14,396 nt of DNA from Candidatus Vampirococcus lugosii (GCF_018420025.1 NZ_JAEDAM010000024.1:1-14396), one strand, 5' to 3'; numbered from the stretch's first letter, positions 1,434-14,147 are shown. Program-made: numbers and translations. The notes: generated from the letters alone by a model not told the origin.

Positions 1434-1509
1434 CAGGGAGGCTAGGATTCGAACCTAGAGCACCAGCTTCGGAGACTAGTATGTTAAACCAGTTAGACAC
1501 CACCTCCCT
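1434..1509 (-). tRNA. tRNA-Arg, anticodon CCG (76 nt including discriminator G, no encoded CCA)
   Basis: The minus-strand sequence is AGGGAGG-TG-GTGT-CTAACTGGTTTA-ACAT-A-CTAGT-CTCCGAA-GCTGG-TGCT-CTAGG-TTCGAAT-CCTAG-CCTCCCT-G. It has a 7-bp acceptor stem, a D loop with GG, a T loop TTCGAAT, and anticodon loop C-U-CCG-A-A. The anticodon stem has two G-U pairs, so the anticodon assignment is less certain than the tRNA call itself. Confidence 0.85.
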
Positions 1510-4755: not shown

Positions 4756-7700
4756 ATGGTTTCAAATGAAGCAAAATTATTTAGAAATTTAGAAGATAAA
4801 TTTGGTTCTGAACTGGTAAGAAAATGAGGTATATATTTTATGTATGGAAATGTTTTAGAAATTAAAATAGATGTAAAAAATATTGATTTTTGAAGTATAT
4901 CTTTTTATTGAGTTGTTGTAGGTAGTAAAAAATATAGTGTTTCATTGACATACTTATATAATTTAGATTTTAAAAATTATTCTTGTGATTGTCCAGCATT
5001 TAAAACATATTGAAGGTGTAAACATATAGTAGCTTTTATTATGTGAATAATTGATAGATTTTTGTTTGATGATAATTTTGTCTATGATAATAAACTTAAT
5101 GATGTAATAAATATTAAAGATTTTAAAAAAAATTCTTCTTTGGATATGTTGAAAACAATTGATTTTGATAAAAAAAATAATTCCAATGATGATTGGAAAG
5201 ATGAAAAATTATATAAAGTTAAAATTGAATTTGATGAAAAGTGATATTATTATAAAGATATGTTTATTTATTTACTTAAATGTAAATTGAAAAATAATTG
5301 AGTATTAAGTCCTTGAAGAAAACTTAAAAAAAATGAATTTGTAAAAGTTCCAGCAAAATTTAAATTGCTTGAATATTTTGCACAAATTGATTCTTGATAT
5401 TATAATTATAATGAAGAAAAAACATTTGATTCAAATCCAGAATTATTTTTTGATTTAGTTAAAAAATATGATAATATATATATATGAAATAAAGAGACGA
5501 TAAATGTTAATAAAAGATTATTTAATTTAAAATTTAATTTTGAAAAACTTGAAAATTGAAATATAAAAATTAACCCAGTTTTGGTATTAGATAATCTTAT
5601 ATATGATATTGATAAAGATTATCTTTATTATAGTAATAATTCTTTATTATCAGCATTAAAATTTTGAAATGAATTGATTTTTTTTAATTTGCCATTAGAT
5701 TTTAATTCTTTTAAAGAATTATTATCTAATGATATAGAGTTATCTACAGAAGAATTTGAAGAATTTAAGAAAGCTAAAAATTATAAATCTTTGATACAAT
5801 ATGCTTATGATTTAAATGGTTTGGAAAATTTTAAAAAAGAACTTCCTTATGATAATCTTGAAGTTATTATTGATAATGATTTTTCAAATGTAGAAGTAAA
5901 ACATAATGTATTTTACAAAGATGAAATTTTGGAAGAAAATGAATTTGATAATAAATATATTTTTAAAAAAGATGAACTTATTGAGAGAGATTTGGAAAAA
6001 GAAAATAATTTATATGATCAAGTTAATTGAATAAAAGTTTTGGCTGATGAAGTTGTTTGAAATACTTTTTATAAAAATTCTACAAAAAATATAGATTCTT
6101 TTTTTGATGAGATAGAAAAACAAGAAAAAAATGGTAAAAAAGTTGTTTATAAACAAAAAACTAAAAGAATATCAAGTAAAACTTTATCTGCAAAATTGGA
6201 TGTAAAATCATGAATAGACCGATTTGATGCTAGTTTAAAATTAAAAATTTGAGATAAAAAAATTAATAGTGCAAAAAAAATATTGGAATCTATAAAAAAA
6301 TGAGATAATACTGTAATACTTGATGATTGAACTGCATTTAAATTGAAAGATAATGTTAAAAAAGTTTTTAAAGAATTGGAAGAAATTGGAATTAATAATT
6401 CAAATATTGAAGATGAAACATATAAAATATGAAAATATAATATATGATTACTATGAAAAAATTCTGAAAATGATGAAAATGATAAAATTCTTGAATATGA
6501 TTTGGATCATAAATGAAAAGAATTAAAAGAAAAAATTTCTAATTTTGATTGAATATCTAATATTGAAGTGCCAAAAGAAATTATTGCTAATCTTAGAGAT
6601 TATCAAAAAAAGTGATTTCAACGGATAAATTTTCTTAAAGAATATAATTTTGGATGAATTCTTGCTGATGATATGGGACTTTGAAAAACTATACAAACTA
6701 TTTCAATGTTGCAAAGAGAATATAATAATAATATTAAAACTCCTAGTTTAATAGTTTGTCCAACTTCTCTTACATTAAATTGGGAAAGTGAAATTGATAA
6801 ATTTGCTCCAAATCTAAAAGCTCAAGTAATAGAAAATTGAAAAGAATGATTTGAAAATATTGAAAAAGATACTAATATAATTATTATTTCTTATTGAATA
6901 ATAGCAAATTTAGTTAATGATTGAAAATTAAAAAAACAAAAATTTCATTATATAGTTGTAGATGAATCACAAAATATTAAAAATCCTAATGCTATAAGAA
7001 GTAAATCTATTTATAAATTGAAATGAAAATATCGTTTAGCATTATCAGGTACTCCTATAGAAAATAATTTAACAGAACTTTGGTCAGTATTTAATTTTTT
7101 GATGCCTTGATTTTTATGAAATTTAAGTTCATTTAGTAAAAAATATAAAAATGCAAATAAAGAAGAATTAAAAATATTATCACAAAAAATTAAACCTTTT
7201 GTAATTAGAAGAACAAAAGAGGAAGTTTTGAAAGAAATTCCACCAAAAATAGAAAATATAACATATTTGAGAATGCCACAAAAACAAAAAAAATTTTATG
7301 ATGAATTAAAAGAAGCTTATAAATTACAAATTTGAAAAAAACTTGAATCTGAATGACTAAATAAAGCTCGTTTTGAAGTTTTGGATGCACTATTGAAACT
7401 TCGCCAAGCTAGTTTATTACCACAGTTAATTGAATGAAATAATGTAAAAGATTCTGCTAAACTTGATTATATTAAAGAAAATATTGAAGAAATGATACAA
7501 TCATGACATAATTTATTAATATTTTCTCAATTTACAAAATTTATATGATATATAATTCAAATTTTGAAAGAGAAAAAAATATCTTATTGCCATATTGAAT
7601 GAAAAACTAAAGCTAAAGATAGACAAAAACAAGTAGAAAAATTTAATTCATGAGAAATATCTGTATTTGTAATTAGTTTGAAAGCATGATGAACAGGGTT

Positions 7701-7956
7701 AAATTTGACTCAAGCTGATTATGTTTTACATATGGATCCATGGTGGAATTCATCCGTTGAAAAACAAGCAACTGATAGAGCTCATCGTATTTGACAACAA
7801 AAAACTGTATTTGTAAATAAATTGATTATGAAAGATAGTATAGAAGAAAAAGTTTTGAAATTACAAGAAAAAAAGAAAGATTTAATTAAAAATGTTTTTG
7901 AATGAGATTTTACTTGAAATTTAAGTGAAGATGATATTAAATATATTTTTGATTAA
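4756..7956 (+). CDS. SWIM zinc-finger / SNF2-family helicase-ATPase (1,066 aa, code 25)
   Basis: The N-terminus carries a SWIM signature, [14 protein letters not shown] (about 4984-5030, CxCx9CxH). The C-terminal half has LRDYQKKGF, ADDMGLGKT (motif I), DESQNIKN (motif II), [14 protein letters not shown] (motif III), [25 protein letters not shown] (motif V) and [11 protein letters not shown] (motif VI). The two standard-code ORFs 5062-5244 and 5674-6030 are in-frame pieces of this gene. Confidence 0.9.
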
Positions 7957-7987
7957 TTTATCAAAAATTTAGTAGATTTTTATTTAA

Positions 7988-8023
7988 TAAAACTTATACT
8001 TAAAATTACTTAGTTAAGTTTTA
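7988..8023 (+). terminator. Weak hairpin between the SNF2 gene and the kinase gene (possible terminator)
   Basis: A 9-bp stem taaaactta / taagtttta with an 18-nt loop that contains tactta twice, followed by an AT-rich tail. It has only one G-C pair. Confidence 0.2.
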
Positions 8024-8046
8024 ATTAAATAAATTTTTTATAGATT

Positions 8047-9861
8047 ATGGATATTAATGTTAATAAACAGTATTTTGAATTGATTGAAGATTTTTTTATT
8101 GTATCAAAAACAGATATTTATTGAAATATAACATATGTTAATGATAATTTTTGTAATATCTCTTGATATACAAAAGATGAATTGATCGGTAAACCTCATA
8201 ATATTGTAAGACATCCAGAAACACCAAAATATGTATTTGAAGAAATGTGGGATACTATCAAAAATAAAAAACAAATTTTTTCTTATATTATCAAAAATAA
8301 GAAAAAAAATTGAAAATGATATTGGCTAAAAAGTGTTATTAAACCTATTTTGAATGATGATTGAGATATTATAGAATTTATTTCTATTAGACAAGATGTT
8401 ACAAAAGAAATAGAATATAATAATAATCTATTTAAAACAATAGTAGAAAATATGTCAGAAAGTGTTTGGATATGAGATAAATATGAAAAAACAATTTATG
8501 CAAATCCTAATTTTTGTGATTTGTTATGATATGATGTTGAAGAGATAATTTGAAAAGAATCATATATGTTTTGGGATAATTTTAGTGCTCAAATTGTTAG
8601 AGAAAATAATAATATTAGAAAAAAATGAAAAAAATCAAAATATGAATGAAATTTAATAACAAAAAATTGAGAAAAAATACCCGTATTTCTTAGTTTAGCT
8701 CCTATGAAGGATTGATGAAGTGTTTGAATTATGACAGATTTGAGAGAATTAAAATCAGTAAAAAAACTTGCTGAATATCAAAAAGCAATAGAATGATCAA
8801 ATATATTATTAAAAATATCGCCAAATTATAATATAACATATGCAAATCAAATATTTTTTAAAGCATCAAAAATAAAAAAAGATAATATTTTAAATAAATA
8901 TTATTTTGATATATTAGATATTGATTCTCATTTAAAAAATGAAATAAAATTATCTCTTGAAAATAAAAAAGTTCGAAGATGAGAATTGAAATTAAATGTA
9001 AATGATGTTGATTATTTTTCTTGGGCTTTTACAAATATTATACCTTTATTTAGTAAAAATTGAGAACTTGAAGAATTTTTAGTTTTGAAAAATAATATTA
9101 CAAAAGAAAAACAATATGAAACAAAAATTCAAAATGATAAAAATCATATAATAAAAAAATTGGAGGAAATAAATAAAACTAAAGATGAATTTATAAATAT
9201 TGTAAGTCATGAATTAAGAACTCCTATGACTACTATCAAATGATATATATCAATGATATTGGAATGAGATGCATGAGATATTAATGATGAAGTAAAGATA
9301 TATTTAAATAAAATAATTACTAATTCTCAGAGATTGATTTATTTGATAAATGATATATTGGATGTGCAAAAACTTGAATCTGGTAAAATGAATTTTAATT
9401 TTACCAAATTTGATTTTGTAAAATTACTTGATGAAGTGTATTTTGATATGTTAAATCTTGCCAAAAAAAATAATCAAAAACTTTTATTGAATAATGATTT
9501 TAAATCATTATATATTATTTGTGATAGAAATAAACTAATACAAGTTCTTGTAAATTTGATAAATAATTCTATTAAATTTACTCCAAAATGATGAGAAATA
9601 AATATAATTTCCAAAATTAATTGAGATTTTTTGGAAATTTGTGTTGTAGATACAGGAATATGAATAAGTGAAGATGATCTAAATAAAATATTTGAAAAAT
9701 TTTGACAAGTAAAAAATTCTCTTACAAGGGATATAGAATGAACTGGTCTATGACTTTTTATAGTTAAATCTATAATAGAAAATTTAGGTTGAAAAATAAA
9801 TATAGAAAGTAAATTATGAGTTTGAACTAAATTTTATTTTTCTATACTTATTAATAATTAA
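8047..9861 (+). CDS. Soluble sensor histidine kinase with three PAS-like domains, HisKA and HATPase_c (604 aa, code 25)
   Basis: PAS1 reads GKPHNIVRHPETPKYVFEEMWDTIKNKK..KNGKGYWLKSVIKPILNDDGDIIEFISIRQDVT. Two further PAS-like blocks follow. The H-box is FINIVSHELRTPMTTIKGY, the N-box LVNLINNSIKFT, G1 VVDTGIGIS and G2 EGTGLGLFIVK. I saw no hydrophobic membrane-spanning stretch. The standard-code ORF 9334-9591 is an in-frame piece. Confidence 0.9.
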
Positions 9862-9894
9862 CTCAAAAAAATTTATTTTATAAAAAATATATAA

Positions 9895-10374
9895 ATGAAA
9901 AAAACAATATTAATTGTAGAAGATAATAAAGAATTGTCTGAAATGTTCAAGATTAAATTTGAAAAATGATGATTTAATGTTTTTATTTCTGATAATTGAT
10001 TTGATTCATTATGACTTGCTATAGAAAAAGAACCTGATCTAATCTTATTGGATATAATGATGCCTGATATGGATTGATTTGAAACATTAAAAGTATTAAA
10101 AGAACAGACATCTTTAAAAACTAAAATTTTTATATTTTCAAATTTAAAGAGTGATGATCATATAAAAAAAGCAAAAAAATTATGAGCTGATGATTATCTT
10201 GTAAAAGCAGATTATACACCAAAAGAAGTTCTTGATAAAGTGATATTATCAATATGACCGGCTGATGATAAAAAATCTATTTTTTGTTCAGATGCAGATA
10301 AAACTTTTGTTTCACAATGTCCACATTGTTGAGAAAAATTTAAATTAGATATTAAAATATCAAAAGATGAATAA
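9895..10374 (+). CDS. Single-domain response regulator (receiver) with a short Cys/His C-terminal tail (159 aa, code 25)
   Basis: ILIVEDN provides the acidic pair and LILLDIMMPDMDGFE the phospho-acceptor Asp. IFIFSN and DYLVKAD (conserved Lys) are also present. The tail is FCSDADKTFVSQCPHCGEKFKLDIKI. All eight Gly codons in this gene are TGA and none is GGN. Confidence 0.9.
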
Positions 10375-13300
10375 TATAAGAGAATATGATGAGTTTGAAT
10401 GAAAAAATAATGATGATGAAGAAGTATTTAATTCTAATCTTGCAGATGCTTTAAGTGATACATTTTTGATAAATGAAAAAAATTCTAATTTATTATCAAA
10501 AGAAAAATTAGAAAATATAAGACAAAATTTGTTGCAAACTACGGAAAAACTTTATGAACAAAATAATTCAAATAAACCAATACTTATAGTAAGTGATTGA
10601 ACATATTTGAGTATTAAAGAAAAAGTTTTGAAAGAAATTTATTGAGAAAAATTATATCAAAAATATACACAAGTAGTAAATATTAAATATAATGATTGAT
10701 GATTAGATATAGAAGATTTGGATAATTATTTAAAATCAAATATTCATTCAAATAGTTTAATATTATTATGATGAAGTATCAGTGATATTGTTGATATAAA
10801 TCCTTTTATTTCCAATAGTTTCTTTTTTTCTTTTTTGAAAGATATTATAGAAAATACATGAGATATATCAAAAAATAATTTTTTATTGTGAATATGTTAT
10901 TGACATCAATTAATATCACATATTTCTTGAAATGAGATGGAAAAATGTGGTAGCGATTTTTCTATCAAAACTTGTCAATTTGAAAAAGAAATTCCTGAAT
11001 TTTATAAAAAATGTTTTGTATGATTAAATAATGAAAATCAAAATAATTGATTTAATTCTGTTTTTACTAGATCTTGGAAAGTTTGAAAAAATTATAATGA
11101 TGATTTTGTTCCATTAATAGCTGATCAAAATTGATTTTGAAATAAAAGTGAAACATTTTTGAGTATACAATTTCATCCTGAAGTTCCTATTAAAGATATT
11201 GATAATATAAATAAACTTAAAAATGAATTGTCAAAATTATGAGTTGATATAGATTCGCTTTCTTTTGATGAACAAAAATTATCTGAAAGTATAGATAAAC
11301 ATTTTTTTATTCCAGTATTTGATAATATAATATCAAAAATTTTAACAAGATTTAATAAAGAAAAATCTGAATATTCTGAGATGAATTTGAATTTAATTAA
11401 TGTAAATAAACTTAGATCTACAAGATTAGTGTGAGATTTTTTATCAGAATCTTATCTTGATTTTAATTTTCCCAAAAGAGAAGATTATTTTAATTATCTT
11501 TATAATAATTGATTACTTTATTTAAATTCAAATTTTGATCGAAAAGTTGATAGGTGAGTAAAAGAAGTATCTAATACTTTATGATTAAAATCTACTTCAA
11601 AAATTATATCCGAATTGCAAAAATATAAAAAAGAAATTGATAAAAATGCTGTATTTACTGTAAGAGATATGTGAGCAGGAGATGGAACTTTTTTGGAAGA
11701 AAGTTATAAAGATCTTTCATGAAAAGATATACTTTTTTCTTGAGTATGAGATAAAATATATATAGATTTGTACAAATGAATAAAAAATTCAAAATATTCT
11801 TGGCAAATACCAGATGATATATTGAAAATATTTGTAAAAAAATTTATACAAATAAAAAATGATATAGAAAAACAATCTTGAAAAAAAGAAATAAAAGAAA
11901 TATTGCCAAAAATACTTTCTTCAATAAATATTTCTAAATGAGATGTTGTTTTGGATGATTCTATGTTTGCAGAAAGTACTAGTATGTTTGATTATGTTTG
12001 ATGAAACTCTTTGAGTGAAGAATCTTTAAAATTTTTGGAATCTAGTGATTGAAAAAATAAAATTAATAATTTAAAAAATGATATACAATTAAATTTTTTA
12101 TGATTTGTAAAATGATATTTTGAAAGAATTTTTGTGTCAGATTTTAATTCTTATTTTGATAATCTTGAAGAAATTAGATTTAAGTATTCTAGTGATTTAA
12201 AAAAATGTGATTTAAATTTATCAGTTAGATGAACATCTCATCTAAATAATAAAGATTATTATAATTTAATGTATGATCTTATAGATAAATGATTAAATGA
12301 TTGATGAATTATTATAGATGATTGAATTATTAGATCATATACATATGAAAATAGATTTTTGGAATTTTTGAAATTACAAGATATTTTTTCTGATACAATA
12401 AAAATATTTATTATTTCAGATTTGAAAGATGATATAAAATCTGTAATTATTCAAAAAAAACCTTTTAATGATGAATTAGATTTATCAAATCATGTAATGG
12501 AATGATTTTTTGTAGAAAGTATAGAAACTTTTGATAATAATGATATTATTGTTAATTCTTATGTAAGAAATTTAGTTCATAACTATATATATTCTTTATC
12601 TTTTTGAAAAGATATTTATAAAAAAATAGATAATAAATTATCTTTAAATATAAATCATATAATAAATTTGATTAATAATGATAATTATGAAGAAATATAT
12701 TTTAAAATTGATGAAATTATAGATGATTTATGAAAAGAATATTTGGAAAATATTTGTAGAAATAGTTCTATAAAAAATTTTAAATCATTAAAATTGCGAT
12801 TGGAAAATACTATTCGTTTTAAAAAAGAAATATCTTCTATTGTATCAAAAATATTAAAGCAAGATAATAATGATTATGATTATCTTATTTTATATGAAAG
12901 TGAAAAACATAAAAATAATATTGAATTACATCTTAATATTTTTGATGAATTAATTAAAGAACAAGAAGAAAAATCTAATGTAAATAAAATAAATATAAAG
13001 CCATTTCAAACATTATTAAATTTTTTTGATAGTATGAATGAAGTATCTGATCCTAAAGTTTTGGAAGAATTGTCTTCTTTATCTCCTTATATTTTACCAC
13101 TTTTGGAAAGTAAAGATTTATTGCTTGAAACTTTATGATTAGATAAGTTTTTGGATAAAAAATTTGAATCTGAAAAAGATGATTTAGATAAAAGTTTAGA
13201 AAATATTTTTTGGAAAAATGTAAAAATATTAGTAATAGATAATATACCTTCTATGAAAAAACTTTTGGATGTTGTTTTTGTTTCTGATTTATGAGTAAAT

Positions 13301-13597
13301 AGAGATAATATTACTATGCTATCTTCTTGTGAAGATTGATTATTATCTTTATCAAAATGTGATTTTGATGTTGTAATAGTTCAAAAAGATTTAGATATTA
13401 ATTCAAATTTTTCTATTTTGAATTATATTAATTCTATATGAACAAATTTATTGTATATTTGATGAGATGATAAAAATATTGATGTTGGTAATAATCTTTC
13501 TTATAAAGAACTTGTTCATCCATTTACAAAAAAAGAATTACAAGAATCTATAGCTTCATTTGATTGACTTGTTGATAAGACAATATTAGATATATAA
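10367..13597 (+). CDS. Unassigned 1,076-aa multidomain protein: GATase1-like domain, Rossmann/SAM-methyltransferase-like region, C-terminal receiver-like domain (code 25)
   Basis: ATG at 10367 is the first start after an in-frame TAG at 10346-10348, and the stop TAA is at 13595-13597. The GATase1 signature is LILLGGSISD, FLLGICYGHQLISH (Cys codon 10895-10897) and LSIQFHPEV (His 11174, Glu 11180). The Rossmann motif is FTVRDMGAGDGTF (11666-11686), with a later LNDGGIIIDDG. The C-terminus reads KILVIDN..FDVVIVQKDLD..LVHPFTKKELQESI. The standard-code ORF 12743-13138 is an in-frame piece. The CDS call is strong, but the function is unknown. Confidence 0.85.
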
Positions 13598-13633
13598 TTT
13601 AAATATATATTATTAAAAATTAAAAACAATATT

Positions 13634-13690
13634 ATTACCTACAGAATTAACAAAATTCACTTTTTTCTCTAATTTAGGTGCAGAAGATTA
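13634..13690 (+). repeat. 57-nt dispersed repeat, copy B (inverted relative to 1587-1643)
   Basis: attacctacagaattaacaaaattcacttttttctctaatttaggtgcagaagatta is 52/57 identical to the reverse complement of 1587-1643. It lies between the convergent ends of the large CDS and the transposase remnant. Confidence 0.9.
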
Positions 13691-13724
13691 GAATTTTATA
13701 ACTTTGTATTGACAATATAAAGTT

Positions 13725-14147
13725 TTACTTACAATATCTTTGATTTCTATTTCGTGAAAATTTTCAATTATGTAATATATATTCAACTACTTCTAAACAG
13801 GCATACATATAATAATTATTTAGTCTTTCAACTTCACTTCTTAAATGTATTTTCTCTAAATTATATTCTTGTTTTAAATATTTATATGTTTCTTCTATTA
13901 ACCATCTATAACTATATGCTTTTATTACTTCTATAGCTTCTTTTGCATTTCATACTTTTTTGTTTGTAAGAAATATTCTTTGTCATTTATTATTTTTTAT
14001 CACCACCAAATAATATTTTCTCTTACTGTTTGGGTCAAATATCTTTACCATTCAATAGTAAAGTTTTCCTCTCATTTTCTTGTCTCCTTTCAGACTTATC
14101 TCTACTTCCTTTTTCAAGTTTCTCAAATAACTAATTGAGTTCTCTAT
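13725..14147 (-). pseudogene. C-terminal remnant (140 codons) of an IS4-type DDE transposase
   Basis: The minus-strand frame reads ..IKAYSYRWLIEETYKYLKQEYNLEKIHL.., which carries the IS4-family Y-(2)-R-(3)-E-(6)-K signature (about 13874-13918). It ends at a TAA (13727-13725) and is closed upstream by a TAG at 14150-14148. Only about 130 nt remain before the terminal inverted repeat, so the N-terminal two-thirds, including the DD part of the DDE triad, is absent. It contains in-frame TGA codons. Confidence 0.7.

Follow-up and report, generated by a model that had tools for sequence, protein, structure and literature searches.

The stretch analysed here (the window) is a whole contig of 14,396 bp from the very small, predatory bacterium Candidatus Vampirococcus lugosii (NZ_JAEDAM010000024.1; 20.3% GC), and its plus strand carries a compact three-gene cassette encoding a sensor histidine kinase, a response regulator, and a large four-part protein, a candidate signalling module (Table 1). 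Calling of open reading frames (ORFs) with translation table 11 returned almost none on this contig, and eight long genes appeared once TGA was taken as a sense codon. TGA makes up 4.7% of the codons on the contig, all GGN codons together 0.66%, and TGG 0.5%, and translation of TGA as glycine brings back the P-loop of Der, the GICYGHQ motif of the glutamine amidotransferase (GATase) domain, and the G-boxes of the kinase. On these grounds, the genetic code of the contig is code 25 (TGA = Gly), as is expected of Absconditabacteria. All protein sequences and residue numbers given below are code 25 translations, and the database copy of the large protein is identical to ours (100% over 1076 aa). 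The gene boundaries proposed in an earlier reading of this DNA (the original prediction), together with a gap of 33 nt between kinase and regulator and an overlap of 8 nt between regulator and large gene, proved to be exact under code 25, and only under it.

Table 1. Features of the kinase, regulator, and large-protein cassette, with positions in the window
Feature	Position	Strand	Details
Intergenic region upstream of the kinase, possible promoter region	7957-8046	+	90 nt; from gene coordinates
Kinase (HK)	8047-9861	+	604 aa
PAS1, NifL-PAS-like	8095-8406	+	aa 17-120; PAS_3, E 1.8e-18
PAS2	8425-8775	+	aa 127-243; PAS_9, E 4e-15
PAS3, divergent	8815-9111	+	about aa 257-355; PAS_9, E 4e-4, 21 bits
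Kinase core	9181-9846	+	HisKA 9181-9384, E 1.4e-17; HATPase_c 9523-9846, E 3.1e-27
Kinase-regulator spacer	9862-9894	+	33 nt; from gene coordinates
Response regulator (RR)	9895-10374	+	159 aa
Regulator tail, Cys knuckle	10252-10371	+	~40 aa; Cys131, Cys142-Pro-His-Cys145
Start/stop overlap ATGAATAA	10367-10374	+	8 nt; large gene ATG and regulator TAA
Large four-part protein	10367-13597	+	1076 aa; NCBI name glutamine amidotransferase-related protein
Class-I GATase domain (predicted)	10562-11266	+	about aa 66-300
Central Rossmann/class-I SAM-methyltransferase-like domain	11459-12541	+	aa 365-725; split by a ~150-aa insertion
All-helical linker	12542-13216	+	aa 726-950; low confidence after ~residue 830; poorly conserved
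CheY-fold pseudo-receiver (predicted)	13217-13594	+	aa 951-1076

The core of the kinase matched HisKA (63.9 bits) and HATPase_c (95.6 bits), each above its Pfam cut-off, with the H-box His388 (9208-9210, within SHELRTP), N507, and the G1 (DTGIG) and G2 (GTGLG) boxes intact and conserved; the phospho-accepting histidine and the N, G1, and G2 boxes of a HisKA-type sensor histidine kinase are, thus, all present. No hydrophobic or transmembrane segment was found in the protein, the highest Kyte-Doolittle average over 19 residues being 1.08, in agreement with the soluble kinase that had been proposed, and by these features, the protein is a cytoplasmic kinase with an intact catalytic core. The triple PAS arrangement of its N-terminal part held well for PAS1, whose best stretch against the NCBIfam model nifL_nitrog spans residues 19-124, and for PAS2; PAS3 is divergent and falls below the Pfam cut-off of 27 bits, yet its alignment covers model positions 5-102 out of 103. 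PAS2 is the sensor domain conserved throughout this family of kinases, with ortholog matches from E 1e-15 to 1e-59 at 13 loci. Kinase orthologs are 63% identical. Detection of PAS1 and PAS3 was limited to three-PAS kinases, those of the window and of the relatives L001 and L003, PAS1 being absent from single-PAS orthologs. Since these two domains are confined to three-PAS kinases and PAS2 and the core are universal, their distribution suggests that additional sensory inputs were gained in the Vampirococcus-like lineage.

The response regulator begins with a receiver (residues 5-105; Response_reg, E 1.8e-21, 76.8 bits), in which Glu9, Asp10, Asp53, Ser82, and Lys104 align to D12, D13, D57, T87, and K109 of CheY; as aligned, it has the complete residue set for phosphorylation. 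No DNA-binding domain was recognised by Pfam in this protein, as originally claimed. Its gene and the large gene show the stop/start overlap of a putative translationally coupled pair. The geometry is kept in the orthologs, and since it is identical in L001 (ATGACTAA) and L003 has a TAATG overlap, the overlap in the window is, on this comparison, not due to chance. Between kinase and regulator, L001 has a spacer of 23 nt and L003 one of 6 nt.

A scan for terminator-like sites found none across positions 7700-14000, cassette included. The intergenic region listed in Table 1 is the sole sizeable plus-strand gap near the cassette, and hence the single candidate for the 5' limit of its transcript. 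A promoter scan returned 66 matches against 76 expected from shuffled sequence, and it is uninformative at 20% GC. The RNA fold 3' of the large gene was not significant (z = -1.1), and a search of the cassette against Rfam gave no matches. The genes 5' of the cassette are co-directional, with short gaps, and the gene 3' of the large gene is convergent.

An exhaustive scan with HMMER, over 1.84 billion representative proteins, retrieved 81 relatives of the large protein; a word-indexed search of 5.8 billion proteins gave three homologs only. The database copies of related proteins are mostly mistranslated, with Trp for Gly at TGA, which lowers the sensitivity of searches and thereby hides the family from routine ones. 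An AlphaFold2 model of the large protein (mean pLDDT 79, pTM 0.71) was obtained from a 34-sequence alignment of the HMMER relatives, in which the orthologs are database copies with W at TGA.

The sole Pfam domain in the large protein is GATase (PF00117), at residues 161-276, with 34.4 bits against a cut-off of 22.8 bits. The putative catalytic triad consists of Cys177 (10895-10897, in GICYGHQ), His270 (11174-11176), and Glu272 (11180-11182), the last two in QFHPE, and it is invariant among kinase-linked orthologs. Foldseek comparison of the predicted model with the PDB retrieved the GATase of GMP synthetase, PabA, TrpG, and TM1158 (E down to 2.6e-7), with TM scores on target of up to 0.68 for GATase subunits; profile, predicted fold, and triad together point to a class-I GATase. 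Identity with GMP synthetase (GuaA) itself was rejected, because the PP-loop ATP-pyrophosphatase domain is missing and scores lie far under the cut-offs (24 bits against 172 for guaA_Nterm of NCBIfam, and 20 against 400 for PRK00074, the GATase part only being matched). A role in anti-phage defence was dropped too, because neither NCBIfam nor PADLOC holds a family for the large protein; the regulator gave only generic, receiver-level PADLOC matches. A profile scan of metagenome contigs returned only unrelated amidotransferases (L018-L032), through the generic QFHPE motif of GATases.

The central domain carries motif I (D434-x-G-x-G-x-G440, in VRDMGAGDG) followed by GVGD462, both conserved across the family; motif I and the acidic end of strand beta-2 of class-I S-adenosylmethionine (SAM) methyltransferases are, thus, represented. 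Further motifs are R-G-T-S-H625 and D651-D-G...S657-Y...R663, and in relatives this C-terminal block (SVRGTSH...GGIIIDDG...SY...R) aligns with the end of the Pfam methyltransferase models, always below threshold. The matches of relatives to Methyltransf_23, 25, 12, 31, and 11 were likewise sub-threshold in every case. PDB sequence-profile searches with this domain gave nothing significant (AprA MT1, E 0.098), and Foldseek of the large protein against the PDB returned GATase and receiver matches only. The model predicts for it a beta-alpha topology with a terminal hairpin. By its motifs, the domain is methyltransferase-like, not a proven methyltransferase.

Regarding the C-terminal end of the large protein, Pfam Response_reg was undetected there at E <= 0.1. 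A profile built from three sequences of the final ~130 residues matched CheY from the PDB (E 2.7e-7), and in Foldseek, the predicted model superposed on CheY 1u8t with a TM score of 0.78 and a root-mean-square deviation of 2.3 A, so that a CheY-like (beta-alpha)5 fold is predicted. At the positions of CheY D12, D13, D57, T87, and K109, the window has D958, N959, Q1006, G1032, and H1051 (the codon of Gln1006 being CAA, 13382-13384), L001 has D, N, Q, G, and K, and L003 has D, D, S, G, and R; the phospho-acceptor Asp and the full pair of conserved Thr/Ser and Lys are not found in this domain. Since the acceptor is replaced by Gln, Gln, and Ser, respectively, canonical phosphorylation of the domain is excluded in the window lineage, as far as aligned residues can tell. 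The receiver-like module that the original prediction had ascribed to the large protein therefore stands as a fold, and fails as a phosphate acceptor of the usual type. Were phosphate accepted at a non-canonical residue such as Asp1008, with the free regulator as shuttle or sink, the system would be a direct phosphorelay. An Asp at the acceptor +2 position is in fact conserved in all three orthologs (QKD, QED, and SDD), and the first Asp of the acidic pocket, Asp958, is kept. Nevertheless, Gln or Ser occupies the acceptor, Gly replaces Thr87, two of the three have His or Arg for Lys109, two of the three have Asn as the second acidic residue, and no receiver is known to use the +2 position; such a relay is, in our estimation, very unlikely.

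The comparison of loci provided the main evidence on how the three genes are associated. An orthologous PAS2-type kinase lies next to a member of the large-protein family in 13 out of 15 distinct loci, which range from 20 to 66% GC, use either code 25 or the standard code, have unrelated flanks, and show four gene orders. In the window, L001, and L003, the order is kinase, regulator, and large gene. The two close orthologs (L001/L002 and L003-L005), with 43-44% identity, share this order and the start/stop overlap with the window, and their flanks differ wholly (LGT, WecG, and UvrA-like genes versus SufBD and SecA). In L016, the kinase is directly 5' of the large gene. The third order, with the large gene ahead of the kinase and, in some cases, of the regulator, is that of L008-L011, L014, L033, and L034. 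Finally, in L017 and L036 (standard code, 60-66% GC), a divergent multi-PAS kinase is found upstream and a 124-aa regulator downstream on the opposite strand.

Loci L008-L011 were recovered from a scan of GTDB genomes, and they belong to four metagenome-assembled genomes (MAGs) of Gracilibacteria/Patescibacteria with 52-57% GC. By six-frame code 25 translation, they encode the large protein, the kinase, and the regulator, in that order, in genes that overlap or nearly abut, the large gene being the first in this GC-rich operon and overlapping the kinase start. Their kinase carries just one PAS domain, which corresponds to PAS2, their large protein keeps the GATase triad and has no receiver, and their regulator ends in CPCC. 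An adjacent kinase is missing from two loci, L035, whose gene extends as far as the end of the contig, and L006, the sole member of the family provably without a neighbouring kinase, in which the GATase Cys and His are also lost.

The families of the kinase, the regulator, and the large protein thus stay neighbours across deep divergence, and the conservation on which the original prediction depended was seen in nearly every relative, despite permuted order and unrelated flanks. A lack of any functional link, with the genes as chance neighbours or as the result of generic genome compaction, could be argued from the tight packing of this 20% GC genome and from the co-directionality of its whole strand. 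However, adjacency in 13 of the 15 loci, with varied orders and unrelated flanks, and the occurrence of domain fusions make this account hardly credible, and the synteny data effectively exclude chance adjacency.

As separate observations on two of these loci, the large-protein relative of L006 (P0004; 513-3902) is AT-rich and has no receiver, shares a C-terminal WFNxxG..RY motif with the GC-rich lineage, and is possibly a non-catalytic paralog. In L014, the ~890 nt that lie 3' of the kinase (10064-10954) contain no called gene, convincing ORF, or Rfam match.

The state of the receiver fused to the large protein varies among loci, and so does the presence of a free regulator. In L014, in common with L015, the large protein bears a fused receiver and precedes the kinase; that of L014 has the full canonical set (D-D-D-T-K), and a separate regulator is lacking. 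The fused receiver of L016 keeps the acidic pocket and the acceptor Asp and has lost the Thr and the Lys, and no regulator lies between its kinase and large gene. The window, L001, and L003 combine a dead fused receiver (Q, Q, and S at the acceptor, respectively) with a competent separate regulator. Finally, L008-L011, L017, and L036 have no fused receiver and do have a separate regulator. From these sequences, a free regulator appears to be usually present where the fused receiver is absent or degenerate, and none was seen where the fused receiver is competent. The free regulators make up one orthologous family, with 39-48% identity across the AT-rich, GC-rich, and standard-code lineages. The possibility that the fused receivers are recent copies of the regulator gene was rejected, because their identity to the free regulators does not exceed 25%.

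Among more distant relatives that use the standard code, P0068 and P0082 have a canonical receiver fused N-terminally to the methyltransferase-like domain, and a multi-PAS kinase and a regulator come after P0082, which is from a MAG of Peregrinibacteria. P0066 and P0075 combine the methyltransferase-like domain with a C-terminal GATase, and P0066 adjoins a PAS-only protein. Two of these distant neighbourhoods are worth recording. In L037 (3763-8668, Peregrinibacteria MAG), the receiver plus methyltransferase-like relative is followed by the multi-PAS kinase, the regulator, and a STAS/SpoIIE partner-switching set, which hints at a larger signalling island. In L038 (2441-8145), the relative with a methyltransferase-like domain and C-terminal GATase has as its neighbours a flavodoxin-like FMN reductase, a HI0933-like flavoprotein, and the PAS-only protein, a possible clue to redox-linked chemistry.

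These fusions bear on the direction of the signal. With the wiring reversed, the large protein would be the input, its product or its pseudo-receiver would modulate the PAS kinase, and the regulator would signal to an unlinked target. Small metabolites are commonly bound by PAS domains, pseudo-receivers can regulate kinases, and the position of the large gene at the head of the GC-rich operon, where it overlaps the kinase start, would suit such a scheme. However, the canonical fused receivers of L014, P0068, and P0082 are, by their residues, putative phosphate acceptors, which would place the enzyme domain downstream of the kinase, and the complementarity between fused and free receivers would not be expected either; we consider the reversed wiring quite unlikely.

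The description of the regulator as receiver-only had to be abandoned, as the receiver is followed by a tail of ~40 aa with a conserved CPxC knuckle. This tail is kept in L001, L003, and L008-L011, in the variants CPHC, CPNC, and CPCC, and thus in AT-rich as well as GC-rich lineages, and it is absent from the regulators of standard-code L017 and L036, which consist of a receiver only (124 aa). Candidate roles for it are a zinc site, a dimerisation hook, or a contact with the large protein. If the knuckle were a small, DNA- or RNA-binding zinc ribbon, the regulator could act on transcription, controlling the expression of the cassette or of other genes, with the large gene merely as a co-transcribed target. 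The conservation of the CPxC tail from the AT-rich Absconditabacteria to the GC-rich Gracilibacteria and weak Pfam matches to zinc-ribbon and zinc-knuckle models are in line with this. On the other hand, all those matches are sub-threshold and the tail offers only one CPxC and one variable Cys, the tailless regulators of L017 and L036 keep the association with the other two families, and the receivers fused to the enzyme (L014, L016, P0068, P0082) would be left unexplained; transcriptional control is, therefore, unlikely.

Taken together, these data lead us to regard as probable that the three genes constitute one conserved signalling module, in which the large protein is the output and is gated by contact with the phosphorylated regulator. 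The assignment of the large protein as output draws on the synteny, the complementarity of fused and free receivers, the receiver fusions, the joint loss of kinase and GATase residues in L006, and the conserved overlap. In this module, the kinase would sense a cytosolic cue through PAS2, with PAS1 and PAS3 as lineage additions, autophosphorylate at His388, and pass the phosphate to Asp53 of the regulator. As the regulator has no DNA-binding domain, its proposed partner is the large protein, to which it would bind once phosphorylated, and the regulators of L017 and L036, being receivers only, must likewise act by protein contact. The most plausible contact would be the pseudo-receiver, in imitation of a receiver-receiver dimer, and binding would switch the putative glutamine-hydrolysing, SAM-linked activity of the enzyme. 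Sister lineages would exert the same control in cis, through a competent receiver fused to the enzyme, and the overlapping stop and start codons would keep production of regulator and enzyme together in the window. The post-translational control of an enzyme envisaged in the original prediction, with the large protein as output, is strongly supported by comparative genomics; of its two routes, protein contact is favoured, whereas phosphotransfer to the large protein's own receiver is disfavoured here.

Several points weigh against this proposal. All mechanistic steps are deduced from sequence, the choice of the pseudo-receiver for docking is a guess, and the methyltransferase assignment of the central domain derives from sub-threshold matches. 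The conserved CPxC tail, the role of which is unexplained, could bind nucleic acid or zinc. Locus L033 is partly at odds with the complementarity, having a kinase, no fused receiver, and, in the ~1 kb that remains of its contig, no regulator. In addition, sequence alone leaves the operon limits undefined, because all plus-strand genes from pyruvate kinase on to the large gene face the same way, at short distances from each other.

Precedents exist for enzymatic response regulators, for single-domain regulators, and for pseudo-receivers. Single-domain CheY-like regulators that act by protein contact include the CheY-FliM pair, DivK, and CpdR. Like these, the window regulator has a phosphorylatable receiver and no recognised effector domain, so its output would go through protein binding, and as in single-domain regulator systems, it is partnered with a HisKA-type kinase. 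Unlike them, it has a conserved CPxC tail, its kinase is not of the CheA type, and its proposed target is a GATase/methyltransferase-like enzyme with a pseudo-receiver of its own. Regulators with enzymatic output are exemplified by CheB (receiver plus methylesterase), PleD and WspR (receiver plus GGDEF), and RpfG (receiver plus HD-GYP). L014, P0068, and P0082 resemble them in fusing a competent receiver to an enzyme-like body, which phosphorylation would gate, and differ from them in that the output combines a class-I GATase with a split methyltransferase-like fold and has no NCBIfam or PADLOC family. In contrast to CheB-type regulators, the receiver is C-terminal in L014 and in the window lineage, and in the latter it is dead, the phospho-switch being a separate gene.

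Pseudo-receivers are represented by the N-terminal domain of KaiA, the plant pseudo-response regulators, and FrzS, in which, as in the window, the CheY fold is kept, the acceptor Asp and catalytic residues are replaced, and the domain presumably serves as an interaction surface. Unlike those of KaiA and FrzS, the pseudo-receiver of the window sits on an enzyme, beside a live kinase-regulator pair, and has intermediate and active counterparts in sister lineages. Finally, the large protein shares with GuaA, PabA/PabB, and TrpG/TrpE, its best structural matches, an N-terminal GATase fold with a Cys-His-Glu triad, but has no PP-loop, chorismate-utilising, or other known acceptor domain, its partner domain being methyltransferase-like.

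A literature search for receiver-GATase outputs found none described, and both the combination of a GATase with a split methyltransferase-like output and the cis-to-trans series appear to be undescribed. A bolder claim, which we advance tentatively and with more doubt than confidence, is that the large protein founds an undescribed class of two-component output, glutamine-hydrolysing and SAM-binding, gated by a receiver either in cis or in trans, in the latter case by a regulator that docks on a fossil pseudo-receiver, and that the sampled lineages capture the transition.

The large protein and its relatives define a new protein family with about 80 cluster representatives, almost unannotated, and its active-site residues can now be predicted and partner proteins named for its biochemistry, with a sensor kinase linked to an uncharacterised enzyme and not to a transcription factor. 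The series of states, from a competent fused receiver through a part-decayed one to a dead one accompanied by a separate regulator, and to the lack of any fused receiver, makes cis-to-trans evolution directly testable. Bacteria in the Candidate Phyla Radiation (CPR)/Patescibacteria keep very few regulatory systems, so a conserved kinase module likely controls something central to their host-dependent lifestyle. If the bolder claim is true, the module may be a core metabolic or life-cycle switch by which, for instance, glutamine from prey or the redox state is coupled to a modification reaction, since it has been kept across Absconditabacteria, GC-rich Gracilibacteria, Peregrinibacteria-like bacteria, and standard-code relatives despite extreme genome reduction.

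The notion that such a system would be unusual in Patescibacteria was overstated, as the module is conserved in the Gracilibacteria lineage. CPR bacteria have the lowest kinase frequencies (0.29 per 100 genes), and among the CPR classes, Gracilibacteria have the highest (0.40 per 100 genes) (PMC10805038); a two-component system in this genome is thus uncommon, not unique. In the paper on the Vampirococcus genome, two-component systems, kinases, and amidotransferases go unmentioned (PMC8080830).

Elsewhere on the contig, a tRNA-Arg gene (anticodon CCG; 1434-1509, minus strand) lies between the thymidylate synthase and pyruvate kinase genes. The gene immediately 5' of the kinase (4756-7956, plus strand) encodes a protein of 1066 aa, with a SWIM zinc finger at its N-terminus and a SNF2/Helicase_C ATPase at its C-terminus, and in relatives it does not accompany the cassette. 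Finally, a short ORF with a partial match to the DDE_Tnp_1 transposase (13725-14147, minus strand) lies close to the end of the contig, in convergent orientation to the large gene, and may be the cause of the assembly break there.

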